Below are positions 12,075 to 24,275 of a stretch of 32,000 nt of DNA, one piece after another (positions within the stretch are counted from its first letter, which is position 1; each line of letters opens with the position of its first letter). Origin of the DNA: Nostoc punctiforme PCC 73102 (GTDB lineage Bacteria > Cyanobacteriota > Cyanobacteriia > Cyanobacteriales > Nostocaceae); NCBI RefSeq assembly GCF_000020025.1, contig NC_010628.1:750001-782000 (forward strand), read 5' to 3'. Position numbers and translations under genes: made by a program. The notes under the pieces were generated by a model. That model saw only the letters and a program-made list of their open reading frames with translations. It searched no databases and was not told where the DNA came from.

Positions 12075-13547
12075 TTAGTCCATCAGGTGTTGCTGGACTT
12101 TTGAAACTAATTCATTTGTCCAGTAGTTGGTAAGTTCGGCATTGGCGGCTTCTACCATAACTCTGATTACTGGTTCTGTACCAGAGGCGCGAACCAAGAT
12201 TCTACCAGAATCACCCATTGCCGCTTCAGCAAGGGCGATCGCTTGTTGCACCGGTTCGCAATCTTGCCACCCCAAACGGCGATCGCGGTCTGTAACTCGC
12301 ACGTTCCGCAATATTTGCGGATATGTCTGGAAGCTTTGATCTACTAATTCTGCTAGAGAAACACCCGCTTCTTTCACCAAAGCTGCCATATGCAAGGCTG
12401 TTAATAAGCCATCTCCAGTTACAGCATAATGACGGCAAAGAATATGACCTGATTGTTCGCCGCCTAACATTCCCCCAGTTCGCTGCATTTCGGCTTGTAC
12501 GTATTGATCGCCGACGGCGGTACGAATTAATTTACCACCAATTTGTTGCCAAGCTTTTTCAAAGCCCAAGTTGGCCATGACTGTAGATACAATCAGGTTG
12601 TCTGGTAGTTGTTGGTTTTTTTGTAAATGCCGTCCCCACAGGTAGAGAATGTAATCGCCGTTCACTTGCCTGCCAGTATTGTCTACTGCTAAGACGCGAT
12701 CGGCATCGCCATCGAAGGCAAAGCCGATGTCGGCGTTGTGTTCTTGGACTGTAGCGGCAAGAATATCTAAATGAGTGGAACCGCAGTTAACATTAATGCG
12801 ATCACCATCTGCTTCGTTATGCAAGCAGATTACCTCTGCCCCCATTTCTGTAAATACTGACGGTGCTAATCCGACTGCTGCACCCCACGCCAAGTCTAAA
12901 ACAATCTTCATTCCCTGAAGATTGAGGGTACTGTTTAAGGGTTTTTTTAACGCGTCGCCATAATGCCCCACTAACTCAAAACGTGAGTAATGCCGTCCGC
13001 AATTGCTAACTTTAGCAATAGGTGATATTTTCCCACGCAGTCCCGCTTCTATTTCTGCCTGTAATATTTGCGGTAGCTTTCCACCATTTGCACCAAAAAC
13101 CTTAATTCCATTATCCTCTGGAGGATTGTGGCTGGCAGAAATCATCACTCCACCGATCGCATCACTGATGCTGGTGAGATAGGCAATGCAAGGAGTGGGA
13201 CATAATCCCAAATACCAAACTTCTAATCCTGCTGCTGTTAACCCTGCACTCAAAGCCATTGCTAGCATATCGCTGGAGTTTCTAGAGTCCTGTCCGAGAA
13301 TGACTGGTCCTATTTGAGTAGCATGGTTACGTAAAACAATCCCCGTCCAAAAACCAACTTGTAATGCTAAGGGCGCACTCAGCAATTCTCCGACTCGCCC
13401 GCGAATCCCATCGGTACCAAATAAAGGATTTGCCGGTAGTGGGATTAAATTCAGTCCAAAACTGCTTTCGATCCCTTTACCCAATCCTTCAGCTTCGGAA
13501 GGAGAATCTCCAGGAATGCCTGGTATCCGAGTTATAGATGAAACCAT
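12075..13547 (-). CDS. glmM: Phosphoglucosamine mutase
   Basis: Phosphoserine loop [13 protein letters not shown], metal loop FDGDADR and sugar loop GGEQSGH. The preferred start is ATG 13547 ([10 protein letters not shown]) rather than the track start at 13568. Confidence 0.9.
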
Positions 13548-14116
13548 ATATTTAAACACTCCACACAATCACACTGAAAAATAGCACTTAAGACTTTATT
13601 CAGCAATTTTGACATGCTTTTTCTCTTTAGAAATTCATTCTAAATTCAGCCATTTTTACGTAATTATACTGAATTGCAGGCTTTAAAATTGTAAATATTT
13701 CATGAAGCCAGTATTGGTTTTTACATTATTAGTAAAGTCTCCACATTTTAGCTAATTATTCCCTTTATGCCATGCACTTTAGTCTTGATTTTTATCTATA
13801 TTTAGTTCACATTTTGCAATGCTACTAACAAGAAATAGAATGTAAGGAATATTACCTAGATTTCATTATGAATATTTTTAGGAAAACTAAGAAGGAAAGC
13901 AAAAGTTAGCTTATAACAACAGAAAATCAAAACACCGGAATGTAAAGTTATATTACGTAGTTTTATTGCTGTGTAAAAAACTACAAAATTATTGCAGCTT
14001 AAAAAATTTTAATATAAATTCTCATCAAATAGTTTTAAGGTAACGTTTTAATGGCTTTTTTAGCCGTTAGTGAATTAAAACTCCGGCAGTTAACTTTTTA
14101 AAGTTGAGAATTTAGC

Positions 14117-14833
14117 ATGAGCAGCAATTTAGCAACCAAATTACGTGTAGGCACTAAGAAAGCCCACACAATGGCAGAAAATGTAGGTTTTGTCAAGTGC
14201 TTTTTAAAAGGAGTAGTCGAAAAAAACTCTTACCGGAAACTAGTTGCTAACTTCTACTTCGTCTACTCAGCGATGGAAGAAGAAATGGAAAAGCATCGCC
14301 AGCACCCAATTCTTTCTAAAATCAACTTTCCCCAGCTAAACCGCAAGTATACCTTAGAGCAAGACCTGAGTTATTACTTTGGTGCTAACTGGAAAGAGCA
14401 AATCAAACTATCTTCCGCAGGTGAAGCTTATGTAAAGCGCATCCGAGAAATCTCTGCCACAGAACCAGAACTGTTAATCGCTCATTCATATACTCGTTAC
14501 TTGGGCGACTTATCTGGGGGACAAATTCTCAAAAACATTGCTGTAACGGCGATGAATTTGTCTGATGGGCAAGGAACAGCTTTTTATGAGTTTCCAGAAA
14601 TTCCTGATGAGAAGGGATTTAAAGCGAAATATCGCCAAATTCTGGATGAATTACCCCTTGACGATGCGGCAACCGATCGCATTGTTGAGGAAGCAAACGC
14701 CGCTTTTGGCACGAACATGAAGATGTTCCAAGAATTGGAAGGCAATTTGATTAAAGCGATCGGTGTAATGGTGTTCAACAGCCTCACACGGCGACGGACA
14801 CGCGGCAGTACTGAACTCGTCACTGCTGAGTAA
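14117..14833 (+). CDS. ho1: Heme oxygenase 1
   Basis: 238 aa. The N-terminus LATKLRVGTKKAHTMAENVGFVKCFLKG, with the proximal His, matches the cyanobacterial HO-1 pattern. Confidence 0.9.
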   Translation: MSSNLATKLRVGTKKAHTMAENVGFVKCFLKGVVEKNSYRKLVANFYFVYSAMEEEMEKHRQHPILSKINFPQLNRKYTLEQDLSYYFGANWKEQIKLSSAGEAYVKRIREISATEPELLIAHSYTRYLGDLSGGQILKNIAVTAMNLSDGQGTAFYEFPEIPDEKGFKAKYRQILDELPLDDAATDRIVEEANAAFGTNMKMFQELEGNLIKAIGVMVFNSLTRRRTRGSTELVTAE

Positions 14834-15103
14834 CGGTATTGACATTGCGGAGTATGGTGTGTGGATTCTAAGTCCAGATAGCCTGATGCAAGATAATTTA
14901 CAGGTATTTCTGGAATAAGAGCGATTAACGCTCAAATATTTAGGGGCAATAGCCCTGTGACTGTTTTCTATTTGTGAAAGCAAGCATGGGGAGATTGCCC
15001 CTCAATTATGATTAAAAGAGTTAGGAGTCATTCGATTTTAGATTTAGGATTTAAGGTTTTCTTTTAATCCCCAATTCAAAATTAGGTAATTTCTGGGCGA
15101 TCT

Positions 15104-17191
15104 TCATCCTAAACTGGATATTGCTGTGCGATCGCTATCTTCATCTTGTAGCGGTAAATCATATTTATTATAGAGAACTTTTATATGTCGGCTAAATTGC
15201 TCCTCTACAAAATAGCTGCTAGAAAATTCACTTGCAAAAGAAACTTGGTGAAAGTGATAATCTAGATTTAGTAGATTGTAGACAAGTCTTAAAAAATAAT
15301 CATCGATCCAGAAATCTACATCAAATAGTGAAATACCATATTTCCCTTCCAACCTACGATTTAAAGTTTTTAGTAACCAAGACCATTGAGGTTTGAGGGT
15401 GGGATCGATACGGTTCCCAAATACAGGATTAAAAAACTGATTTACTTGAGTTGTTCTCACATCAATCACTTTAGTTAGTAAATCTGCTGCTTTGATTGGA
15501 GATGAATTAAACCAATAGTTAGCAACTACTAAATCATGTAAATAAGCAACTACAATTTTAGGGTTTTCTTTAATGAACTGCGATCGACAAACAATTCCTC
15601 TGATTGATGGAATTCTTAAACTACTTGTTTGAGATAAAGGCAGCTTTCTCACAAAAGCGTAAGCTTCTAGAATTGAGGCGAAAGTGTAACAGCATACGTA
15701 AGCATCTATAGTTTTGTTTGCCAAACTCTTACTTGCTTTACGAGGATCTTCATTCACTAATCTACAATCTTTACTGACATCCATATTATAGAGGTCAAAA
15801 AGAGTGATGATGAACCTATGAGCATTGGAACCAAATAAGGTAGAAATTCGTTTACCTTTGAGATCCTGAACAGTATTTATAGAAGAATCTTTATGCAAAA
15901 CAATATTTATATCTTGACCTAAAAGATTATATGAAGCAATCCCAATTAATTTAGAACCAAAACTAAAATCATCAAAGAATTGACTACCATTATTCAAGAG
16001 ATAAATATCATCTAAAATACAAATATCTAGCTCTCCCCGCTTTATGTGTCGGTTCATTTGTTCGCCAGAGTCAAAAGGTAGAATTTGTAACTCGAAATTT
16101 CGAGTAATTTCAATATTTTTGAAAATAGCCTGTTCAAATGATGAAGATGCTCTCTGTAAATCAGAAATATACTTAGTCCCATACCCAGCAATAAACTGTC
16201 CTATAGAATCTCTCTGAATACCTATCCTCAGAATTTTTTCCTTTTTAGGAGAATACCTATTTAAAATTAAGTTTATATTAGTCAAGCTTTCCAAATTGTC
16301 TCGATCGAGTCTAAAGCTTCTCACCAAACCCTCTGCGGATATTAACAACTCACTAAAGCGAGGAACATGCAGATAAATACCATATTCATTAACATCTTGA
16401 ATAGTCAGAGTAAAAACTTGGTATTGAGCTATTATCTCAGCTTGGCAAAAGTCAGGTAAAATCGTTATTTTTTGGTTTTTTGAGGCATAATTTAGTACAT
16501 CTTTATAACTGTTTAGCACGTGTACGCCGCTTAATTGGTTTCTCAAAAATACATTTTTAGATAGTTCTTGATAAACCTCGTCTAAAAGCACAAGATCAGC
16601 CAGATTAATATCATTTATGTTAACTAAGCTATGCTCATTCAAATATTTATTTGCTCCAAAGACAAACAACAGCATTTTATGAGTTTTTAATCTAGTGCAG
16701 TGGTGTTCTTCTTTATATCCAGAGCAAGTGTTGAGTAGTAGCTCCATTTCTCTGAGGTGAGAATTGGAAAAAAATCTGCTATCTTTAACCGCAATTTTTT
16801 TGAGATTTCTGTCTGGAAAACAAAGCTGAAATCGCTGCAAATATTGTTTTAGCCAGACTTCTAAAATTAAACTAGTAGCCCCCAATATTAAATCTTCACC
16901 TTCAGCGCTAAATGTTGCCTGAAATTCTTCTTGCAGATTTTCTACAGTTTCTACAACATTAAATGTCTGGGAAATCAATTTCTTGCCTTTATTAGTCAAG
17001 CATATAGAGCCGGGAGAGCGATTTAACAGAATTACTCCGAAATAATCCTCTATCTGTTTGACTTTTTTACTAATTAATGATTGACTATAACCTAGTTTTT
17101 GTGCTGCTTTAGAGAAGCTACCACAGTCATCTACTGCTTTTAAAATTTTGATGTGGTTTAGGGTAATATCTTCGAGTTTAATTTTATTCAT
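15104..17191 (-). CDS. LysR-type transcriptional regulator fused to a C-terminal SsuA/NitT/TauT-like solute-binding domain (695 aa)
   Basis: Residues 1-70 form a LysR HTH (FSKAAQKLGYSQSLISKKVKQIEDYFGVILLNR). Residues about 95-295 have the length and layout of an LTTR effector domain. Residues about 318-640 carry SBP-type patterns: VQDLKGKRISTLFGSNAHRF...VNEDPRKASKSLANKTIDAYV and FIKENPKIVVAYLHDLVVANYW. The gene is visibly more AT-rich than its neighbours. Confidence 0.7.
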   Translation of the reverse strand: MNKIKLEDITLNHIKILKAVDDCGSFSKAAQKLGYSQSLISKKVKQIEDYFGVILLNRSPGSICLTNKGKKLISQTFNVVETVENLQEEFQATFSAEGEDLILGATSLILEVWLKQYLQRFQLCFPDRNLKKIAVKDSRFFSNSHLREMELLLNTCSGYKEEHHCTRLKTHKMLLFVFGANKYLNEHSLVNINDINLADLVLLDEVYQELSKNVFLRNQLSGVHVLNSYKDVLNYASKNQKITILPDFCQAEIIAQYQVFTLTIQDVNEYGIYLHVPRFSELLISAEGLVRSFRLDRDNLESLTNINLILNRYSPKKEKILRIGIQRDSIGQFIAGYGTKYISDLQRASSSFEQAIFKNIEITRNFELQILPFDSGEQMNRHIKRGELDICILDDIYLLNNGSQFFDDFSFGSKLIGIASYNLLGQDINIVLHKDSSINTVQDLKGKRISTLFGSNAHRFIITLFDLYNMDVSKDCRLVNEDPRKASKSLANKTIDAYVCCYTFASILEAYAFVRKLPLSQTSSLRIPSIRGIVCRSQFIKENPKIVVAYLHDLVVANYWFNSSPIKAADLLTKVIDVRTTQVNQFFNPVFGNRIDPTLKPQWSWLLKTLNRRLEGKYGISLFDVDFWIDDYFLRLVYNLLNLDYHFHQVSFASEFSSSYFVEEQFSRHIKVLYNKYDLPLQDEDSDRTAISSLG

Positions 17192-17267
17192 GCTAGGTAG
17201 GGCAAGATTTTAAAATAATTCGTAATTAAATTTTGTAACGGGGATATTAATTAGGCATCAAAACTTG

Positions 17268-17283
17268 CTGCCTTGGGAGGCAG
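17268..17283 (-). terminator. Short hairpin downstream of the LLM gene
   Basis: CTGCCT-TGGG-AGGCAG. On the minus strand it is followed by CAAGTTTTGA, about 28 nt after the stop at 17311. Confidence 0.35.
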
Positions 17284-17310
17284 GGGAATTAAACCCCCAA
17301 ACTCTTTTAA

Positions 17311-18360
17311 TTACAAGGGAATTAAGATATTCTGCTGTGTATATTTTGATATTACTAATTCGTGGAAGCGAATAGTATCTTCCAACATAGATTCAAATTT
17401 GAGTACTATTAAGTCAACGCCAACAGCTTCGTATTCTTTCAGGCGGTTAAGAATAGTATAGCGATCGCCAACGAGTTGAGCAGATAAACCAAGGTTAGCT
17501 TCAATGGTTTGCTTGATATCGAGTTTGTTATGGGCAACGACATTAGGATCGATTTGTTCTTGAAAGTACTTGATTTGCTGCTGATTGGCAGAACGATAAA
17601 TCGCTTCTAATCTGGCTTCGGCTTGGGAAGTATGTTCACGAACGATCGCAAATGCACTCATTGCTACTTTAATCTGACGGCCGTAGCGATCGCTAGCTAA
17701 TCTTTTCACTTTCTGCACCAATGCTGCCGTTTTTTCAGGTTCATCAGCATTGATAAATAGATAATCTCCCTGACGAGCCGCTAAGTCAATCGCCCTGTCT
17801 GATTCGCCGGCAATGAAAATAGGTGGTGTTGGTGTAGGCTTATCTGTGAGGATACCACCCGCAATATTGTAGTATTTGCCAACATAATTAAAGTCTTCAA
17901 CTGTCCACAGCCCCTTAATTACATCAATGTACTCTTCTAATCGCGCGTAGCGATCGCTGTGAGGTAGCCAGACATCTCCATAGCTTTCTACTTCTAATTT
18001 CCACCAACCTGCAATACCACTCAGAGCAAATCTGCCGTTACTAAGTTGATTTTGAATGTTTGCACTCAGCTTCGCAATAACCGCAGGCAATTTAAAACCA
18101 GGTTGTACAGCCGCAACAATCTTGATATTCTTGGTGTTCAAACTTGCTAAAGCTGCTGTAATCCAAGCATCAGCGACATTATAGTTAGGGCCATGAACTG
18201 CATTTAAGTAATGTTCAGGAATGTAATAAAAGTCATAACCTAACTCGTCTGCCTGAACTGCCAGTTTCACCAAATCTTGAGTGGATAAATTAGCTTCATG
18301 GTTGACAACCCGCAATCATCCACCACAGACCGGCGACCAAATTCCAAACTGAAGTGTCAT
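17311..18360 (-). CDS. LLM-class (RutA/SfnG-like) flavin-dependent monooxygenase with an in-frame TGA at codon 15; possible pseudogene
   Basis: The minus strand from ATG 18360 reads MTLQFGIWSPVCGG-TGA-LRVVNHE..., in the same frame as the 334-codon track ORF (TTG at 18315). The family N-terminus is ..GG/NG-W-L.. (RutA: PIGNNGWLIS), so the TGA at 18316-18318 sits where TGG (Trp) is expected. The rest of the frame is intact, with NGRFALSGIAGWW. Confidence 0.7.
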
Positions 18361-18635
18361 AAATCTTTTTCCTGTGCCTTTTTTTACGAGATATCTATTT
18401 AACTACGGTATCTATATCTTTTTGCCGTGGTTTAGTAGTTCACACTACCACATTTATTTCTGCTGTGCATAGTTGCAGATGACACATGTAAATCACTTGC
18501 TTATCACGTTCTGGAATAGTATCAAAACTTTAGTCAAATATTGATTTCTGGTTGTTCTGACTGAATCTGACTGAATCAGGATGATAGCCAGCAAATATAA
18601 AATAATAATTAAATACACAGCCAAATTGAGCAGTA

Positions 18636-18661
18636 TTCCATTTTGGAACATGGAAATGGAA
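18636..18661. promoter_or_regulatory. Candidate LTTR-type operator: TTCCA-N3-TGGAA (T-N11-A) followed by two more TGGAA half-sites
   Basis: TTCCA TTT TGGAA CA TGGAA A TGGAA. It overlaps the 9-bp inverted repeat ATTCCATTT/AAATGGAAT (18635-18643 and 18654-18662). It lies in the divergent region between the two LLM genes. Confidence 0.3.
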
Positions 18662-18783
18662 TTTAAGTATATCAAGTCACGACATCGGAAAAATTCTCGT
18701 GATAAAGTCTGATTCATTAAAAACTACGGTAGTTCAGTCGGCTTATAGTATATTGCGACCATAAGAACCTGAAATTGTCTACT

Positions 18784-18805
18784 TGTAAACTCAGAGTAGT
18801 TTACA
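18784..18805. promoter_or_regulatory. Perfect 8-bp-arm palindrome TGTAAACT-N6-AGTTTACA
   Basis: Seen directly in the sequence, 226 bp upstream of the sfnG-like start. Candidate dimeric regulator site. Confidence 0.25.
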
Positions 18806-18965
18806 GCCGCTCTCAAGCTTTCAATTTTGATCAAAATTTTGCCCTATCATTCTCGTTCGGATGCAATAACTTTAACCTCTCTCCTAAAAGCAGAGAAGCT
18901 TTGAATCTTACTCCCCAACGCTAGCAGGAAAGGGGCTGCTCTTGTTGTATGTATTCCAAATATTT

Positions 18966-18993
18966 CCTCCTGCCTCCTGGCTCCTGCCTCCTT
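18966..18993. repeat. Heptamer tandem repeat CCTCCTG x4 (STRR-like)
   Basis: CCTCCTG CCTCCTG GCTCCTG CCTCCTT, in the 5' leader region of the sfnG-like gene. Confidence 0.6.
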
Positions 18994-19030
18994 TTACTAA
19001 CCAAGCAGTTTCAATTACAAACACACAATT

Positions 19031-20128
19031 ATGGTAGATATTAAGTTCGCATACTGGATTCCCAACGTTAGCGGTGGGTTAGTTGTTAGTAAAATTCCCC
19101 AACGAACAGATTGGACTTATGAATATAACGCTAAACTAGCTCAGACTGCTGAAGAAGTTGGATTTGAATATGCACTAGCACAAGCCAGATTTATCGCCAG
19201 CTATGGCGCTGAATATCAGTTAGAGGCATTAACAACCGTATCAGCCTTGGCTCCAGTTACCAAGAAATTAAAGCTAATTGCAGCAGTTCACCCTGGATTG
19301 TGGCATCCGGGAGTAGTGGCTAAAATCGGCTCTAGCATTGATTTTCTCTCTAACGGACGGTTCGCTCTGAATGTAGTTAGCGGCTGGTTCAAAGATGAAT
19401 TCACTATATATGGTGAACATTGGTTAGATCATGACGAATGCTATCGTCGTTCAGAAGAATTTATCCGCGTTCTCAAAGGTTTGTGGACTGAGGATGAGTT
19501 TCACTTTAAAGGCGATTTTTACCGCATTAACGGCGGTTGGGTGAAGCCTAAACCAGTTAATCAGAATCCACACCCGGAGATATTCCAAGGTGGTAATTCC
19601 AAAGCTGCGCGGCGCATGGCTGGTCGTGTCTCTGATTGGTATTTTATGAATGGCAACACCATAGAAGGGGTGCGAGAGCAGATTGAAGAAGTGTCTGCAT
19701 TAGCGCGTCAAGCAGGACGCAAAATTAAGTTTGGTCTGAATTCCTTTATCATCGTGCGAGATACAGAAGCAGAAGCCCATGAAGTATTGCGCGATATTAT
19801 TGCCCAAGCCGATGTAGAGGCGGTGAAAGGATTTGGTGAAGCAGTGAAACAAGCCGGATCTTCTACTCGTGAACGTCAGGGAATGTGGGCGAATTCCAAT
19901 TTTGAAGACTTGGTGCAATATAACGATGGGTTCCGTTCAGGCTTGATTGGCACTGCCGAGCAGGTGGCTGAAAAGATTCGCCAGTTTCATGAAGCGGGAG
20001 TTGATTTAATTCTCGGTGGCTTCTTACACTACACAGATGATTTACCTGCATTTGGTAAGACAGTAATTCCGATTGTGCGCGAACTTAAAGCTACTCGTCG
20101 GACAGCTGATGAGTTAGTTGGAGTATAG
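19031..20128 (+). CDS. sfnG: FMNH2-dependent dimethylsulfone monooxygenase-like LLM enzyme (SfnG family)
   Basis: The N-terminus IKFAYWIPNVSGGLVVSKIPQRTDW, NGRFALNVVSGWFKDEF, VSDWYFMNGN and FEDLVQYNDGF closely follow my recollection of Pseudomonas SfnG. Confidence 0.75.
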   Translation: MVDIKFAYWIPNVSGGLVVSKIPQRTDWTYEYNAKLAQTAEEVGFEYALAQARFIASYGAEYQLEALTTVSALAPVTKKLKLIAAVHPGLWHPGVVAKIGSSIDFLSNGRFALNVVSGWFKDEFTIYGEHWLDHDECYRRSEEFIRVLKGLWTEDEFHFKGDFYRINGGWVKPKPVNQNPHPEIFQGGNSKAARRMAGRVSDWYFMNGNTIEGVREQIEEVSALARQAGRKIKFGLNSFIIVRDTEAEAHEVLRDIIAQADVEAVKGFGEAVKQAGSSTRERQGMWANSNFEDLVQYNDGFRSGLIGTAEQVAEKIRQFHEAGVDLILGGFLHYTDDLPAFGKTVIPIVRELKATRRTADELVGV

Positions 20129-20239
20129 ATCATACGGTTCGGTTTAAGGGCAAGATGTCCATCCCTCAAATGGGTATTTCGCGTTGTCTCATAGGAGTGG
20201 CGATTATGAGTCACTCAATCACAATCAAGGAGTTTTACC

Positions 20240-21448
20240 ATGACATCAGTAATTAATACTGGTCAGAAGGCGCATATTATTCGAGATGACAAAGAAGCGA
20301 TCGCGATCGCTCACGAATTAGCAGCTGAGTTTGCCAAGGGAGACTCAGAACGCGACCAAAATCGGCGTTTACCTGCTGAGGAAGTAGAAAAGTTCTCCCA
20401 GAGTGGATTGTGGGGAATTACGGTTCCTCAAGAGTATGGTGGGGCTTTTGTATCAAATGCAACCCTAGCAGAAGTAATTAAAATCATCTCCGAAGCTGAT
20501 TCTAGCCTCGGTCAAATTCCCCAAAACCACCTTTATATGGTGGAAGCAGTTCGGTTGGATGGCACTGATGAGCAGAAAAAGTTCTTCTTTGATTTGGTTC
20601 TACAAGGTAAACGCTTTGGTAACGCTTTCTCGGAAGTAGGTACTAAGTCTGTTAATGATGTGCAGACAAAGTTACAACCAGATGGATCTGACTTCGTACT
20701 TAATGGACGTAAATACTACTCTGCTGGGGCATTGCTAGCACATTGGGTTCCTGTCATTGCCAGTAATCCAGATGGTAAAACAGTGGTGGCATTTGTCGAA
20801 AGAGATGCCGAAGGATTAACCCTACTCGATGACTGGACGAGCTTTGGACAGCGTACCACCGCTAGCGGCACTACCATTATTGAAAATGTGAAAGTTAAGG
20901 CAGAACACGTGATTCCGCACTACTTAGCTTTTGAACGGGCGACACCAATGGGTGCGATCGCGCAAATCATCCAAGCCGCCGTAGATGTGGAAATTGCCAA
21001 AGCCGCAGTCCGTGACACCATTCACTTTGTGCGTAAATATACTCGCCCTTGGGTTGACAGCAATTTAGAAAAAGGTTACGAAGACCCCCTGACACTGTAC
21101 AACTTAGGCAATGTCCAAATTCAGGTTCACGCTTCTGAAGCATTGCTGCGTCGTGCAGGTGAATTTCTTGACATCGCCAACGAGTCAGGTTTAGAAGAAC
21201 TCAAGGTAGTTGAAGCATCGATCGCAGTTGCTGAAGCCAAAGCCTTAGCCACCGAAGCAGCATTACTAGCTACCAACAAATTGTTTGAACTAGCAGGTAC
21301 TAAGTCCACATTGGAGGAATTCAACTACAATCGCCACTGGCGAAATGCCCGCGCTCACACACTCCACGATCCCGTGCGTTGGAAGTACTACGCTGTTGGT
21401 AACTACTTTCTCAATGGTGTCTATCCCCCGCGCCATCCTTGGTTGTAA
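20240..21448 (+). CDS. Acyl-CoA dehydrogenase-fold sulfur-acquisition oxidoreductase (SfnB/DszC-like)
   Basis: 402 aa with an ACAD fold and the C-terminal signature NRHWRNARAHTLHDPVRWK typical of the SfnB family. An AAGGAG RBS lies 6 nt upstream of the ATG. Confidence 0.75.
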   Translation: MTSVINTGQKAHIIRDDKEAIAIAHELAAEFAKGDSERDQNRRLPAEEVEKFSQSGLWGITVPQEYGGAFVSNATLAEVIKIISEADSSLGQIPQNHLYMVEAVRLDGTDEQKKFFFDLVLQGKRFGNAFSEVGTKSVNDVQTKLQPDGSDFVLNGRKYYSAGALLAHWVPVIASNPDGKTVVAFVERDAEGLTLLDDWTSFGQRTTASGTTIIENVKVKAEHVIPHYLAFERATPMGAIAQIIQAAVDVEIAKAAVRDTIHFVRKYTRPWVDSNLEKGYEDPLTLYNLGNVQIQVHASEALLRRAGEFLDIANESGLEELKVVEASIAVAEAKALATEAALLATNKLFELAGTKSTLEEFNYNRHWRNARAHTLHDPVRWKYYAVGNYFLNGVYPPRHPWL

Positions 21449-21541
21449 TTGCCGCATTCTCTACTGGGGTGAAGCTTTCAGAATTAACATTTACCAGAAT
21501 GCTTTACCCCTAATAAATCCAACATTCTTTAAGTTGATACG

Positions 21542-21709
21542 ATGAGCGTTGCAAACCCAACCCAGAGGCGGAGCATTTGGAAAAGCCAGCCATTTAAAGG
21601 ACTGCTTTTCATTGCTATAATTGCTGTCATTAGCTATATTTTTGAACTCATCTTTGGTCAAGTTATTCAACTGAATGTGGGAACAAAGTTGACTTACATC
21701 ATGATGTAA
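21542..21709 (+). CDS. Candidate small membrane protein (55 aa), not in the supplied ORF track
   Basis: The ATG..TAA frame reads MSVANPTQRRSIWKSQPFKGLLFIAIIAVISYIFELIFGQVIQLNVGTKLTYIMM. It has a basic N-terminus followed by one TM-length hydrophobic helix and fills a 340-bp gap inside the apparent operon. No clear RBS. Confidence 0.3.
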   Translation: MSVANPTQRRSIWKSQPFKGLLFIAIIAVISYIFELIFGQVIQLNVGTKLTYIMM

Positions 21710-21787
21710 AACTATTTTAAATTCAAAGTTTTCCAGTTAAATTTATAGTTACTTCTCACAAGAAAGTTATAGGAGAAGTGGTAAAGT

Positions 21788-22939
21788 ATGCAATTAATCG
21801 AAACGAAAGAGTCTCAAAATTATCTTGATTTAGCTAAGTCTTTAGCAAAAGAATTTGCCCAAACTGCTGTAGAGCGGGATGCTCAAGGGGGCACACCAAA
21901 ACATGAACGCGATCGCTTGCGCCAAAGCAACTTACTGAAACTGATCGTACCCACAGAATTCGGTGGTTTAGGGCAAAGCTGGATTACTGTTCTGCAAATT
22001 ACCCGCGAGTTTGCCAAAGTTGATAGCTCTATTGCTCACGTCTTTTCTTACCACCATCTAGGTGTAGTAATCCCTCATATCTTTGGTTCAGCACAGCAAA
22101 AACAGCGATATTACTCAGAAACTATTCACAACAATTGGTTTTGGTGCAATGCTCTTAACCCATTAGATAAAAGAACTACTCTGACACCAGAAAATGATTA
22201 TTTCCGTCTCAACGGCATTAAAAGCTTTTGCTCTGGCTCTCAAGACTCGGATATATTGCCGATTACTGCCACTCATCAAGAAACTAATGAATTGAATATT
22301 CTGGTAATTCCCACCCAACGGCAAGGCGTTACAGTTCATGATGATTGGGATAATATGGGGCAACGCCAAACAGACAGTGGTAGTGTTACTTTTGAAAATG
22401 TGTTGGTATACCCTGAAGAAATTCTTGGTAGTAGAAACAAAGCCAATCAACCCTTCAATACTATTCGTGCCTGCTTGACTCAATTGAATCTTGCTAATAT
22501 CTACCTGGGAATTGCACAGGGAGTATTTGAAGCTGCTAAAACATATACTTCCACTAATACCAAACCTTGGCTGACATCAGGTGTAGAGAGTGCAACCCAA
22601 GATCCTTACATCCTTCAGCACTATGGCAAAATCTGGGTTGATCTCCAAGCAGCCGTGTATCTTACTGAGCAGGCGGGAGAATTACTACAAGCAGCTTGGG
22701 AGCAGGAATGGTCACTTACCGCCGAACAACGGGCAGAATGTGCGCTCTTAGTTGCTACTGCCAAAGTCTTCGCAACTAAAGTTGGTTTAGACATTACCAA
22801 CCGAATATTTGAAGTTATGGGCGCACGCGCTACTAGTGCCAAATATGGCTTTGATCGTTATTGGCGTAATCTCCGCACGTTCACTTTGCACGATCCAGTA
22901 GATTACAAAATCCAAGAGATTGGAAAGTGGGCATTATAA
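21788..22939 (+). CDS. Acyl-CoA dehydrogenase-fold oxidoreductase (SfnB/DszC-like paralog)
   Basis: 383 aa with C-terminal FDRYWRNLRTFTLHDPVDYK, parallel to the upstream paralog. A GGAGAAG RBS region is present. Confidence 0.75.
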   Translation: MQLIETKESQNYLDLAKSLAKEFAQTAVERDAQGGTPKHERDRLRQSNLLKLIVPTEFGGLGQSWITVLQITREFAKVDSSIAHVFSYHHLGVVIPHIFGSAQQKQRYYSETIHNNWFWCNALNPLDKRTTLTPENDYFRLNGIKSFCSGSQDSDILPITATHQETNELNILVIPTQRQGVTVHDDWDNMGQRQTDSGSVTFENVLVYPEEILGSRNKANQPFNTIRACLTQLNLANIYLGIAQGVFEAAKTYTSTNTKPWLTSGVESATQDPYILQHYGKIWVDLQAAVYLTEQAGELLQAAWEQEWSLTAEQRAECALLVATAKVFATKVGLDITNRIFEVMGARATSAKYGFDRYWRNLRTFTLHDPVDYKIQEIGKWAL

Positions 22940-23039: not shown

Positions 23040-24275
23040 TTATGAAGCGATTAAGTTCTTGAGGGCATCTTGAGCATCAGTGTTTTCTGGGTCTATTTGC
23101 AGCACTTCTCGAAAAACTGCTGCCGCCTCTTGTTTTGAACCATCACCAGATTCACCATAAGAAATATCTCTGCCAAGTTTGATGTAAAGTTCTGCCATTT
23201 GGCGACGTGGTATTAGATTCGCCAAAGGCTGATAAAATTCCATGACAGCAGGAAAGCCTTTTTGCTTGTAAAGTGGCAAGCTAATATTTGAGCAGGTGTC
23301 ATAACTGCCTTCACCAATTTTTACCACCTTCTGGCAATTTGCCAAGGCTTCATCTAGGTTTCCGTGTTGAGCTAGTGCTTCATTTAATTTACTGTAATAA
23401 TAATCAGTGGGTTTTGCGGCAACGGCTTGGCGGTAAAGAGCGATCGCTTCTTGGTGTTTTTCTTGTGTCATCAGCACATCACCCAGTTCTACATACCTTG
23501 AAGCTTCAGGCTCGATTTTAATTAATTGGCGGTAGGCTGCGATCGCTTCGTTTACAAAACCGCGCTTTAATGAAAGTTCAGCTAACCTTTCGTAATAAAC
23601 CTCATTTTTTGGGTCATTTTTACTCGCTTGGCGATAGATTGCGACTGCTTCGGAATATTCGAGAATATCACCCAGGCTGCTGTATGCTTGATAGCTCTTT
23701 GGGTTAATTATTAGGGCTTCTCGGTAAGCAGCTATCGCTTCTTCTCGTTTGCCTATTTTGAAGAGGGTATCGGCTAAATTGTTGTAATTATCGTCATCAG
23801 GCTCGATTTTAATCGCTTGACGATAAGCCACTACTGCTTCCTCTGGATTGCCCATTGCTATCAAATTCATCGCTAAAATGATGGAAGCTGTATCACTTTT
23901 AGCATCGAGTTTGACAGCTTGGCGAAAAGCAGCGATCGCTTCTGCGGTTCGTCCCTTTTCAACCAGAAAATTACCAAGTTTGAGGTAAATCGCCGCATCA
24001 GGAGTTAATTGCAACCCTTGACGATAAGCAGCAATCGTCTCTGCAATCTTGCCTTGGGAAGATAGAATGTCTGCTAGCTTGATGTAGGCATAGCTGTTTT
24101 TGGAATCCCGTTCAATCAAACTCCGCCAAATATTAGCAGCTTCTTGATAATTTTTCACTTCTTCGGCAGATGTCGCTTTTTGTTCCAACTCCTCTACTGT
24201 TTGCGCCACAGTAATTTGAGGAATCAAAACCAAACCTAAACTCAATAAAAACGGCAATATTTTCCAGCTAACCAT
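23040..24275 (-). CDS. Secreted tetratricopeptide (TPR) repeat protein
   Basis: Signal-like N-terminus MVSWKILPFLLSLGLVLIPQITVAQT, then about 9 repeats of the A-I-A-A-Y-R-Q-A pattern spaced about 34 aa apart. Confidence 0.8.
   Translation of the reverse strand: MVSWKILPFLLSLGLVLIPQITVAQTVEELEQKATSAEEVKNYQEAANIWRSLIERDSKNSYAYIKLADILSSQGKIAETIAAYRQGLQLTPDAAIYLKLGNFLVEKGRTAEAIAAFRQAVKLDAKSDTASIILAMNLIAMGNPEEAVVAYRQAIKIEPDDDNYNNLADTLFKIGKREEAIAAYREALIINPKSYQAYSSLGDILEYSEAVAIYRQASKNDPKNEVYYERLAELSLKRGFVNEAIAAYRQLIKIEPEASRYVELGDVLMTQEKHQEAIALYRQAVAAKPTDYYYSKLNEALAQHGNLDEALANCQKVVKIGEGSYDTCSNISLPLYKQKGFPAVMEFYQPLANLIPRRQMAELYIKLGRDISYGESGDGSKQEAAAVFREVLQIDPENTDAQDALKNLIAS

Follow-up and report, generated by a model that had tools for sequence, protein, structure and literature searches.

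An apparently eroded copy of a modular cyanobacterial sfn/msu-type sulfur-scavenging locus in Nostoc punctiforme PCC 73102

Gene content of the locus

We analysed a 32,000-nt stretch of Nostoc punctiforme PCC 73102 (NC_010628.1), called the window, in whose numbering all positions are given unless another locus is named. On rechecking, every ORF listed earlier was found in place. The genes between ho1 and a TPR gene are collected in Table 1. An earlier note on this DNA had described them as an organosulfur-scavenging block, and the sfn/msu type was borne out by SfnG and SfnB, which both scored above equivalog cut-offs. As the note had also claimed, the window holds neither a reductase nor a transporter: a search of its 28 ORFs of at least 100 aa, by Pfam/NCBIfam models or sequence, gave no flavin reductase or ABC importer component. 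ssuA, ssuB, ssuC, ssuD and ssuE were all absent from the window, where the sole SsuA-like sequence is the cytoplasmic domain fused to the regulator REG.

Table 1. Features of the block and its flanks (window numbering)
Feature	Position	Strand	Description
Flank ho1	14117-14833		
REG	15104-17191	-	LysR-type regulator fused to SsuA/NMT1-like domain; intact
LLM2	17311-18360	-	Luciferase-like monooxygenase, SfnG paralog, TGA-interrupted
Divergent control region	18361-19030		Between LLM2 and sfnG; conserved blocks
SfnG	19031-20128	+	TIGR04021 equivalog; intact
SfnB	20240-21448	+	TIGR04022 equivalog; intact
MEMB350 stump (55-aa ORF)	21542-21709	+	First 53 codons of gene for 350-aa membrane protein
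MsuC-like ACAD-fold monooxygenase	21788-22939	+	Homology to 6U76/6UUG; frameshifted 3' end
Flank TPR gene	23040-24275		

SfnG, SfnB and MsuC-like enzymes

SfnG scored 622 bits against the NCBI curated equivalog TIGR04021 (cut-off 383) and 466 bits against the solved SfnG of P. fluorescens (8T0U). All nine dimethylsulfone-contacting residues published for 8T0U (PMC11588060) were kept: W11, Q53, R55, Y60, W121, F267, W285, Y296 and N297. The gene had been called an SfnG-like dimethylsulfone monooxygenase, and these two results uphold the name; by homology, SfnG is predicted to be FMNH2-dependent and to convert dimethylsulfone to methanesulfinate and formaldehyde. SfnB likewise exceeded the cut-off of its NCBI curated equivalog (TIGR04022, 628 bits versus 431), in agreement with its earlier description as an SfnB-like ACAD-fold oxidoreductase. 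Its nearest solved structures were DszC (189 bits) and MsuC (153 bits), and its sequence places it in the SfnB family of two-component flavin monooxygenases with the ACAD fold (group D).

The last gene of the block had been read as a second SfnB/DszC-like paralog but proved to be MsuC-like instead. Its best solved relative was methanesulfinate monooxygenase (6U76/6UUG; 410 bits, ~55% identity over the full length), against ~331-336 bits for the best dibenzothiophene monooxygenase chains (TdsC 5XB8, 335.7; DszC, 331). It fell below both the DszC equivalog cut-off (378 versus 850) and the SfnB cut-off (308 versus 431). Homology thus points to conversion of methanesulfinate to methanesulfonate. 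Compared with the related loci L006, L007 and L008, the gene has gained a T at 22937; the resulting frameshift brings in a TAA stop and costs the protein its final 11 residues (NDELPKPNFYS).

LLM2

The ORF at 17311-18315 runs upstream in frame through a TGA (18316-18318) to an ATG (18358-18360), giving 349 codons with a TGG to TGA nonsense change at codon 15 (in-frame translation MTLQFGIWSPVCGG*LRVV). All relatives compared (43 of 43) had TGG at this codon, and TGA was confined to the five assemblies of this strain, so that LLM2 appears to be inactivated. LLM2 and SfnG are paralogs with 33% identity. LLM2 scored 204 bits with TIGR04021 (cut-off 383) and 99 bits with the RutA model (cut-off 498), exceeded no curated family cut-off among the Pfam/NCBIfam models and did not keep the SfnG substrate residues. 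Of its earlier label, RutA/SfnG-like, what stands is that it is nearer SfnG than RutA; it is a member of neither family. LLM2 and REG, on the same strand with LLM2 upstream, probably form one transcription unit.

The fused regulator and candidate operators

In REG (695 aa), a LysR part with HTH and effector-binding domain (residues ~1-294) is followed by a solute-binding domain that is SsuA/NMT1-like (~320-590) and, at the C terminus, by a highly conserved stretch (~592-695). Pfam recognised HTH_1 (61.5 bits) and NMT1 (35.3 bits), with no match to PF03466; TIGR01728 (SsuA_fam) gave 72 bits, under its cut-off of 163.5. An AlphaFold2 model of moderate confidence (pLDDT 65.8, pTM 0.40) resembled the full-length LTTRs CcmR, BenM, CbnR and OxyR as well as the SsuA structures 3KSX, 2X26 and 3UIF (TM 0.56-0.67). 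The family comprised 113 clusters, mostly of 660-713 aa with a minority of shorter, partial entries, and each match bearing an organism name was cyanobacterial. The proposal of a fused regulator of a different type was therefore correct: a full LysR protein carries an SsuA-like domain in a conserved family whose named members are all cyanobacterial. REG keeps such company in distant lineages too: its neighbours in Leptolyngbya, Egbenema and Elainella include flavin monooxygenases, an FMN reductase and symporters.

CysB and Cbl are LysR-type sulfur regulators. REG shares with them the N-terminal LysR HTH, the effector-binding fold and a divergent promoter beside a target gene, but it differs in its length (~695 aa), its second, SsuA-type domain, its conserved 100-aa tail, the missing PF03466 match and the exclusively cyanobacterial origin of its named family members.

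Alignment of 18 loci revealed conserved blocks in the divergent control region. AACTACGGTA occurs at 18401-18410 and 18722-18731, its only exact copies in the 32 kb, and the second copy extends to the palindrome AACTACGGTAGTT (18722-18734). Another palindrome, TCACGA-N14-TCGTGA, lies at 18677-18702. TACGGTA/TACCGTA was found at fixed positions upstream of sfnG in REG/LLM2 loci (1.9 per kb, compared with 0.078 per kb in the background) and was missing from ssuD-ssuE-type loci. The region gave no match to an Rfam family, and its candidate operator is no canonical T-N11-A LysR box. We infer that the conserved blocks are candidate operator sites; REG probably controls expression from this region, and the locus would be induced by sulfur limitation.

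A gene stump at a deletion junction

The 55-aa ORF, previously a candidate membrane peptide, turned out to be a gene stump. It aligns to residues 1-53 of the MEMB350 family and consists of the first 53 codons of that gene (one transmembrane helix) followed by MM-stop. It ends at a deletion junction (~21703-21707), where the window joins positions 12717 and 16081 of L008. The 3,363 bp missing here contain the rest of the 350-aa polytopic MEMB350 and, encoded on the opposite strand, an SLH/OprB porin (full genes in L008: MEMB350 12554-13603, porin 13823-15517; NF033921, 545 bits, for the porin). The identical junction was found in L006 and L030. MEMB350 had no Pfam or NCBIfam match and no PDB fold match; topology and gene neighbourhood suggest that this uncharacterised 350-aa inner-membrane protein has a transport role.

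Synteny across cyanobacteria

We compared 80 species-representative cyanobacterial loci, 63 of them from the Nostoc clade. sfnG and sfnB were neighbours in 77 of the 80; of the remaining three, two have a fragment or lie at a contig end, and Elainella L083 has a symporter in place of sfnB. The REG-LLM2 pair was divergent from sfnG in ~40 loci. With this conservation, the linkage of the block genes, proposed earlier, is not due to chance. ORF clusters for the porin, REG and MEMB350 were present in 47, 40 and 34 of the 80 loci, respectively. Intact copies in the 63 Nostoc-clade loci numbered 34 for REG, 40 for LLM2, 29 for MEMB350, 36 for the porin, 45 for the MsuC-like gene and 61 for sfnB, and fragmented copies of the accessory genes were common across Nostoc.

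In most Nostoc relatives, MEMB350 and the porin separate sfnB from the last gene; MEMB350 also comes after sfnG-sfnB in Egbenema and in two genomes of Leptolyngbya. ssuABC is present at the locus in Fischerella and Chlorogloeopsis, a sodium/solute symporter in other relatives, and SsuD is encoded just downstream in some. Five loci (L077, L079, L081, L082 and L085) have the order ssuD-ssuE-sfnG-sfnB, with SsuE at 239 bits (TIGR03567, cut-off 164) and SsuD at 628 (cut-off 518). Among the 63 Nostoc-clade loci, none had an ssuE within 10 kb. Four genomes that share the locus type (Nostoc NMS8, FACHB-110, FACHB-280 and Peltigera cyanobiont 232) have their SsuE gene on contigs other than that of the locus, so supply by a reductase in trans is normal.

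Discussion

In this strain, the block is probably the partly eroded copy of an sfn/msu-type sulfur-scavenging locus that is modular and widely conserved in cyanobacteria. The earlier note had taken the compact, transporter-less set as the system's own form. This was not upheld: relatives carry uptake genes and the window has lost 3.36 kb. The absence of transporter genes reflects a recent deletion, the damage to LLM2 and the MsuC-like gene is fresh, and the compactness results from erosion, not design.

Homology suggests the following pathway. A thioether or sulfoxide would be oxidised to a sulfone, possibly by the ACAD-fold SfnB; SfnG would cleave the sulfone, for example dimethylsulfone, to methanesulfinate and formaldehyde; and the MsuC-like enzyme would produce methanesulfonate. 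Sulfite would then be released for cysteine synthesis by an SsuD/MsuD-type enzyme, or possibly by LLM2, whose place here is a guess given that it is without the SfnG substrate residues and under every curated cut-off. An SsuE-type reductase, with its gene at another place in the genome, would supply all these monooxygenases with reduced FMN, and the extra cytoplasmic SsuA-like domain of REG would sense a sulfonate or sulfone. Uptake in intact relatives would use the porin and MEMB350, a sodium/solute symporter or ssuABC. In this strain, with the uptake module deleted, a nonsense codon in LLM2, the MsuC-like protein shortened by 11 C-terminal residues and SfnG, SfnB and REG intact, at best a reduced pathway would survive, which would depend on small neutral sulfones entering by diffusion and on enzymes from other parts of the genome.

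The SfnB family takes its name from the sfn genes of P. putida DS1 (sfnECR, sfnFG, sfnAB), where the linked gene sfnF supplies a reductase and the regulator is SfnR, a sigma-54 activator. Both systems combine sfnG with sfnA/sfnB-type genes of the ACAD fold for obtaining sulfur from sulfones and thioethers (TIGR04021 and TIGR04022 both recognise the Nostoc proteins), but the Nostoc block has no linked reductase and a regulator of another class. This lack is not unusual, because sfnG of P. fluorescens is an isolated gene served by MsuE, which is shared in the SfnG-MsuC-MsuD pathway (PMC11588060), and a single MsuE supplies all monooxygenases in A. baylyi (PMC13352529). The Nostoc locus resembles Pseudomonas sfnG and msuEDC in its SfnG ortholog with the substrate residues, its MsuC-like protein (~55% identity), its two-component flavin chemistry and a reductase not necessarily linked to sfnG (PMC11588060). 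It differs in having no msuD or msuE, in the extra SfnG paralog LLM2, in its regulator, which is a LysR-SsuA fusion and not CysB or SfnR, in the porin and MEMB350 of intact relatives and in its cyanobacterial host.

The DMS pathway of A. baylyi ADP1 (Dms1-3, SfnG, MsuC, SsuD and one MsuE; PMC13352529) similarly has ACAD-fold monooxygenases beside a sulfone-cleaving enzyme, and a single reductase serves every step in trans. Since DMS and DMSO are oxidised there by the ACAD-fold Dms1-3 (PMC13352529), thioether or sulfoxide oxidation, which we propose for SfnB, is plausible by analogy; the likeness is at the level of fold and gene neighbours and does not imply orthology. The genome survey in that study turned up mostly Pseudomonadota and did not mention cyanobacteria (PMC13352529). 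Classical ssuEADCB alkanesulfonate systems, including the Npun_F5882 cluster of Nostoc punctiforme (PMC7784912), share enzyme superfamily and purpose with the block, and ssuD, ssuE and ssuABC adjoin sfnG-sfnB in other cyanobacteria; in the window, by contrast, none of the five genes is present and the SsuA-like part is a REG domain.

The substrates could be organosulfur compounds other than C1 sulfones, such as larger sulfones, sulfoxides or sulfonates of host origin (lichen fungi, mosses or soil), and the locus may then serve symbiotic sensing or nutrition. Most relatives are Peltigera lichen cyanobionts or come from similar sources, symbiotic Nostoc shows both enrichment and induction of organic-sulfur gene families, and loss of an alkanesulfonate monooxygenase by mutation prevents colonisation of moss (PMC7784912, PMC5702739, PMC5913679). 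SfnG accepts other dialkylsulfones (PMC11588060), monooxygenases of these kinds are promiscuous (PMC13352529), the substrates assigned to SfnB and LLM2 are putative, and the SsuA-like sensor domain of REG suggests a sulfonate. Against this, the aromatic cage of SfnG that fits dimethylsulfone is fully kept and the MsuC-like partner suits a C1 route, which makes this reading possible but rather improbable. The use of dimethylsulfone or related C1 compounds by a cyanobacterium with this gene set had been called uncharacterised, and our literature search found no paper on dimethylsulfone use by cyanobacteria. Organosulfur use by Nostoc has nevertheless been characterised in part, since its alkanesulfonate genes have already been examined in moss symbiosis (PMC7784912, PMC5702739, PMC5913679).

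We consider it unlikely that the block is a complete, deliberately compact working island, with diffusing substrates, a reductase from general metabolism, a real 55-aa peptide and a TGA gene made productive by restart or read-through. Dimethylsulfone is small and neutral, and to our knowledge the sfn/msu papers mention no dedicated importer for it; SfnG, SfnB and REG are intact and a TTG directly follows the TGA of LLM2. Moreover, Nostoc sp. LEGE 12450 has the same deletion yet intact LLM2 and MsuC-like genes, so at least one lineage has retained the form without a transporter. However, the 55-aa ORF stops at the junction and reads differently in a sister strain, the TGA replaces an invariant Trp within the first barrel strand region, and a restart product would be without 15 conserved residues. 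The frameshift in the MsuC-like gene is a third lesion, and the frequent fragmentation of accessory genes across Nostoc argues for erosion.

The TGA and the extra T are single-base differences, the typical form of sequencing errors, but it is very unlikely that the three lesions all arose in sequencing or assembly and that the living strain has an intact locus: the window sequence recurs at 100% protein identity, TGA included, in five separate assemblies (runs SRR6394273, SRR6394275, SRR16479520, SRR16479523 and SRR16479525), and two other genomes share the junction. A role outside sulfur metabolism, in pyrimidine, alkane or acyl-CoA metabolism, is hardly credible despite the functional diversity of both folds and the low family scores of LLM2, given the RutA scores (138 bits for SfnG and 99 for LLM2, cut-off 498), acyl-CoA dehydrogenase models below 91 bits and the recurrence of ssuE, ssuD, ssuABC and the SsuA-like sensor as neighbours across cyanobacteria.

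In the eroded-copy reading that we favour, the pathway is of a known kind, and what is uncharacterised is the fused regulator and the very rare MEMB350 membrane protein family.

Gene content and enzyme assignments

We found in the window all of the open reading frames listed in the earlier note, and searches of the window returned neither a flavin reductase (SsuE/MsuE) nor an ABC importer, as that note had also reported.

Features of the locus and its flanks
Feature	Position	Strand	Assignment
Heme oxygenase gene	14117-14833		Flank; PF01126
REG, LysR-SsuA fusion regulator, 695 aa	15104-17191	minus	LysR HTH and NMT1/SsuA-like region
LLM2, luciferase-like monooxygenase	17311-18360	minus	334-codon ORF after TGA
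Divergent control region, 670 bp	18361-19030		Between LLM2 and sfnG
sfnG, second luciferase-like gene	19031-20128	plus	TIGR04021
sfnB, ACAD-fold gene	20240-21448	plus	TIGR04022
55-codon ORF	21542-21709	plus	Stump of MEMB350
MsuC-like, second ACAD-fold gene	21788-22939	plus	6U76/6UUG
TPR gene	23040-24275		Flank on the other side

The sfnG product is, as judged from its sequence, SfnG, an FMNH2-dependent dimethylsulfone monooxygenase. It gave a full-length, equivalog-level match to TIGR04021 (622.2 bits, cut-off 382.95) and scored 466 bits against the solved SfnG of P. fluorescens (8T0U). Alignment to that structure showed that nine of nine residues were kept (W11, Q53, R55, Y60, W121, F267, W285, Y296 and N297), all of which contact dimethylsulfone or build the aromatic cage in the P. 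fluorescens enzyme (PMC11588060). SfnB was likewise an equivalog match (TIGR04022, 628.1 bits, cut-off 430.9). It has the Pfam domains Acyl-CoA_dh_N, Acyl-CoA_dh_M and Acyl-CoA_dh_2 of the ACAD fold, and its nearest solved relatives, at much lower scores, were DszC and MsuC.

The second ACAD-fold product had been described as a further SfnB/DszC paralog. It is only 29% identical to SfnB, and its best solved relative was MsuC (6U76/6UUG; 410 bits, ~55% identity, residues 13-383), the match spanning the full length, with the best dibenzothiophene monooxygenase chains at ~331-336 bits (TdsC 5XB8, 335.7; DszC, 331). Because MsuC led the other solved relatives by a clear margin, we relabelled this product MsuC-like. 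DszC itself (NF043015, cut-off 850 bits) was rejected for both ACAD-fold products, with 225 bits for SfnB and 379 bits for the MsuC-like protein.

LLM2, previously called RutA/SfnG-like, is 33% identical to SfnG. It fell below all curated cut-offs, those for SfnG (204 vs 383 bits), SsuD (139 vs 518) and RutA (99 vs 498), and an intact LLM2 ortholog does not keep the SfnG substrate residues (Q53E, R55Y, N116S, W285 deleted, Y296A). LLM2 is a predicted SfnG-related enzyme, neither SfnG nor RutA.

The regulator gene is AT-rich, with a GC content of 0.33 (15001-17000) against 0.45 for sfnG/sfnB (19001-21000) and a window average of ~0.40; this contrast may reflect different histories of the modules. 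The window shares a full-length TPR gene at the border with Nostoc sp. LEGE 12450 and a small number of further relatives (~75-78% identity). Most other relatives have short fragments of it or lack it, so the border of the locus is unstable on that side too.

A conserved but modular locus in cyanobacteria

We compared 80 species-representative cyanobacterial loci, 63 of them from the Nostoc clade. The synteny comparison proposed in the earlier note showed that the core genes are linked, with sfnB following sfnG in 77/80 loci. The locus is modular and often eroded.

State of each gene at the 63 Nostoc-clade loci (some of those scored as absent are contig ends)
Gene	Intact	Fragmented	Absent
sfnG	62	1	0
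sfnB	61	1	1
MsuC-like	45	5	13
LLM2	40	5	18
REG	34	9	20
Porin	36	10	17
MEMB350	29	9	25

In three loci (L057, L064, L067) sfnG and sfnB are separated by a sodium/solute symporter gene and a small ORF; a fourth (L058) has the small ORF alone. An ssuD-like gene directly follows the MsuC-like gene in L033 and L058 and lies a few kb further downstream in L032. More distant cyanobacteria have the order ssuD-ssuE-sfnG-sfnB, in which SsuE scored 239 bits (TIGR03567, cut-off 164) and SsuD 628 bits (TIGR03565, cut-off 518). In Fischerella and Chlorogloeopsis ssuA, ssuB and ssuC are found near sfnG-sfnB, and ssuABC-like genes also occur in Egbenema. Taken together, these linkages indicate that cyanobacterial sfnG-sfnB is regularly tied to reductase and uptake genes. 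No ssuABC linked to the sfn genes is present in the window, which stands at the reduced end of the cyanobacterial range.

Several further associations were observed. The SSS-family symporter is always accompanied by an ORF of 135-190 aa that matches no family, and this pair is embedded in sfn or REG loci across several orders of cyanobacteria (L057 11390-13450; L064 11606-13650; L067 11391-13520; L083 11172-13232; L093 6946-8979; L094 3374-5425). We regard the two genes as a putative alternative uptake module. Three Leptolyngbya-type genomes have the riboflavin synthesis gene ribBA (DHBP synthase and GTP cyclohydrolase II) beside an sfnG or REG locus (L087 11208-12488; L093 5107-6414; L095 5058-6332), a linkage that may couple flavin supply to flavin-hungry pathways. 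In Nostoc loci of the ssuD-ssuE-sfnG-sfnB type (L089, L090 12006-14774), the genes after sfnB encode a FAD_binding_4 protein and one with an Fe-S/CCG domain, GlcD/GlcF-like, and ssuE and sfnG are separated by a small DUF7219 ORF. LLM2 and sfnG 95-96% identical to those of Nostoc were found in an Acetobacteraceae metagenome bin (L020; CAZZZY010000918.1, 2787 bp), probably through a binning error in a lichen metagenome.

The N. punctiforme copy is decaying

The window holds a decaying copy of this locus. The LLM2 frame opens with an ATG at 18358-18360, is interrupted by a TGA at 18316-18318 and continues as a 334-codon ORF, reading MTLQFGIWSPVCGG-stop-LRVV. This codon, number 15, is TGG in 43/43 covering relatives; TGA is confined to the window and the five assemblies identical to it. 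Selenocysteine insertion or other recoding was rejected, as every relative encodes Trp. In the MsuC-like gene an extra T at 22937 creates a TAA stop. The polypeptide is incomplete, ending in ...KWAL where relatives read ...KWAL-NDELPKPNFYS, and thereby loses 11 C-terminal residues (NDELPKPNFYS). Window DNA recurs in five read-run assemblies, and their agreement counts against sequencing error.

In most Nostoc relatives among the 80 loci, ~3.4 kb of additional DNA separates the 55-codon ORF from the last gene. The extra DNA of Nostoc sp. LPT (L008) carries two genes, one for a polytopic membrane protein of 349 aa and, on the other strand, one for an SLH/OprB porin (NF033921, 545 bits). The first residues of the L008 membrane protein match the 55-aa ORF of the window. 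What had been proposed as a membrane peptide is residues 1-53 of MEMB350, a family of ~350-aa membrane proteins, followed by MM-stop. The window aligns to L008 until 12717 and resumes at 16081, with 3,363 bp missing and the junction at window 21703-21707. The window keeps the 5' end of the MEMB350 gene, which identifies the difference as a deletion from the window, not DNA inserted in the relatives. LEGE 12450 and one genome of lichen origin (L030) have an identical junction. LEGE 12450, whose sfnG is 99% identical to that of the window, has neither the LLM2 TGA nor the extra T in the MsuC-like gene, which indicates that the deletion came first; both point lesions are private to this strain.

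The compactness of the locus is secondary, and the cluster should be annotated as partly pseudogenised and not as a minimal functional system. SfnG, SfnB and REG are the only products that are clearly intact in this strain; LLM2 is impaired, as is the putative entry route, and MsuC function is probably impaired too. A 55-aa representative protein in a public collection (P0285) matches positions 1-55 of the MEMB350 profile (cf. L006, LEGE 12450, 12512-12676), and such a stump therefore seems to have been called as a gene in public data.

MEMB350, a cyanobacterial membrane protein family

No Pfam or NCBIfam model was found for MEMB350. A word-indexed search gave 36 clusters, in which all hits with an organism name were cyanobacterial, and an exhaustive profile search among 1.84 billion representatives gave only 29 representative clusters with E of 0.001 or less. 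Mean column identity is 73%, with motifs rich in Trp, Phe and Tyr. The AlphaFold2 model (pLDDT 72.7, pTM 0.74) has ~ten helices, and no significant fold match was found in the PDB (best E 0.12, TM below 0.3). In two Leptolyngbya genomes and Egbenema, MEMB350 follows sfnG-sfnB with an isochorismatase-family gene in between. Its topology, the neighbouring porin and the conserved association with sfnG-sfnB point to a putative role in uptake. The isochorismatase-family hydrolase between sfnB and MEMB350 (L086 9193-9969; L087 8978-9778; L094 1078-1863) was not seen in Nostoc.

The fused regulator and the control region

REG combines a LysR HTH (PF00126, 61.5 bits) with an NMT1/SsuA-like region. The Pfam search gave no PF03466 match, indicating that its effector domain is divergent. 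In the AlphaFold2 model, of moderate confidence (pLDDT 65.8), the HTH precedes a two-lobed effector-binding domain that ends near residue 294; a linker connects this to a second domain of binding-protein type (~320-590). Using Foldseek, we found that the first ~300 residues align to full-length CcmR, BenM, CbnR and OxyR, as for a LysR-type regulator, and that the second domain aligns to the SsuA structures 3KSX, 2X26 and 3UIF (TM 0.56-0.67). As a sequence, the C-terminal half scored below the SsuA cut-off (TIGR01728, 72.4 bits, cut-off 163.5). We rejected the possibility that this domain is a secreted periplasmic ABC component: it lies behind a DNA-binding regulator, there is no N-terminal signal sequence and no ssuB or ssuC is nearby.

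The REG family comprises 113 clusters at 43-99% identity, mostly of 660-713 aa, with a minority of shorter, partial entries. All named members are cyanobacterial (Nostoc, Aulosira, Elainella, Egbenema, Leptolyngbya, Phormidesmis and others). The last ~100 residues are the most conserved by sequence and are poorly modelled. Residues ~592-695 (window 15104-15412) contain long near-invariant runs down to 43% overall identity; they gave no family match, and model confidence there is very low.

In Leptolyngbya KIOST-1 the REG locus reads sodium/solute symporter, small ORF, REG, FMN reductase and luciferase-like monooxygenase. In Egbenema, MEMB350, isochorismatase, SfnB, a small ORF, symporter and SfnG are divergent from LLM2-REG, beyond which lie further monooxygenases and an ssuABC-like transporter. 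The presence of REG among organosulfur genes in such distant members supports its putative role as pathway regulator. The earlier note's proposal of a regulator of a different, fused type held for the LysR HTH and the SsuA-like fold; for REG, both ligand and operator are predictions.

The divergent region between LLM2 and sfnG contains conserved blocks in the alignment. AACTACGGTA has only two exact copies in 32 kb, at 18401 and 18722. In loci with REG/LLM2, TACGGTA/TACCGTA occurs upstream of sfnG at 1.9 per kb, against a background of 0.078 per kb, at fixed positions (~-220, plus a pair at ~-529 and -510), and it is absent from the ssuD-ssuE-type loci. A second conserved palindrome, TCACGA-N14-TCGTGA, is found at 18677-18702. 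We consider all of these sites no more than candidate operators.

Other readings of this region were rejected. There was no Rfam match in 18300-19100 at E up to 1 that would point to an RNA element or riboswitch upstream of sfnG, and a promoter/terminator consensus scan gave no more sites than in shuffled sequence. A 74-aa ORF (18493-18717) falls inside the control region; across the conserved DNA blocks its protein conservation is only ~50%, relatives often have just part of it, and it was not accepted as a gene. Across the whole window Rfam matched just one element (60.6 bits), an unrelated tRNA gene at 28464-28537, between moaC and an MFS transporter gene.

Reductase supply

The classical ssu/msu operon has a linked SsuE/MsuE and ssuABC, whereas the window has neither. 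No ssuE was found within 10 kb at any of the 63 Nostoc-clade loci; in other cyanobacteria it stands beside sfnG. SsuE-family reductases are common in Nostoc. In genomes with the same locus type, SsuE is encoded on other contigs (Nostoc sp. NMS8, FACHB-110, FACHB-280 and Peltigera membranacea cyanobiont 232); two strains that encode REG, N. muscorum FACHB-395 and FACHB-87, have it as well. In Leptolyngbya FACHB-261 it is on a different contig from the sfnG-sfnB-MEMB350 operon. The arrangement resembles that of P. fluorescens, where an isolated sfnG is supplied by MsuE (PMC11588060), and A. baylyi, where a single MsuE serves all monooxygenases of the pathway (PMC13352529). With unlinked SsuE in relatives and this precedent, the absence of a linked reductase is ordinary.

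Proposed pathway and its meaning

The homologous pathways of Pseudomonas and Acinetobacter (PMC11588060, PMC13352529) suggest a likely route. SfnB may convert a thioether or sulfoxide to the sulfone, SfnG would cleave the sulfone to methanesulfinate, and the MsuC-like enzyme would convert methanesulfinate to methanesulfonate. An SsuD/MsuD-type enzyme, or LLM2, would then release sulfite. Unlinked SsuE would supply FMNH2, REG would exert control, and the porin and MEMB350 would give entry.

The chemistry is of an already known kind, and NCBI models name SfnG and SfnB. What is undescribed is the cyanobacterial architecture, with its LysR-SsuA regulator, the SfnG paralog LLM2 paired with that regulator, and the MEMB350-porin module; our literature searches found nothing relevant on a LysR-SsuA fusion. 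We put forward tentatively, as somewhat less than an even prospect, that cyanobacteria have their own version of the DMS/dimethylsulfone pathway, centred on two uncharacterised parts. One would be REG, a one-component regulator in which an entire LysR-type protein bears a cytoplasmic SsuA-type domain that serves as second sensor, for sulfones or sulfonates. The other would be the very rare, structurally unclassified inner-membrane protein MEMB350, importing small organosulfurs together with a dedicated porin.

The view that organosulfur use by cyanobacteria is uncharacterised stood in part. Our literature searches found no paper on dimethylsulfone use by cyanobacteria, but Nostoc alkanesulfonate genes have been studied in moss symbiosis (PMC7784912). 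To date, Proteobacteria and actinomycetes have been given the main part in terrestrial cycling of sulfur derived from dimethylsulfide, and a recent survey of the DMS pathway deals mainly with Pseudomonadota and leaves cyanobacteria unmentioned (PMC13352529). The gene content described here suggests that many filamentous cyanobacteria, lichen and moss symbionts included, can draw sulfur from sulfones. This possibility bears on the proposal that organic sulfur is a currency of Nostoc symbioses (PMC7784912). Two concrete targets, so far uncharacterised, are the fused LysR-SsuA regulator and the MEMB350 family. Should cyanobacteria indeed have their own version of the pathway, soil and symbiotic Nostoc would carry the locus as a modular accessory trait that individual lineages acquire and erode.
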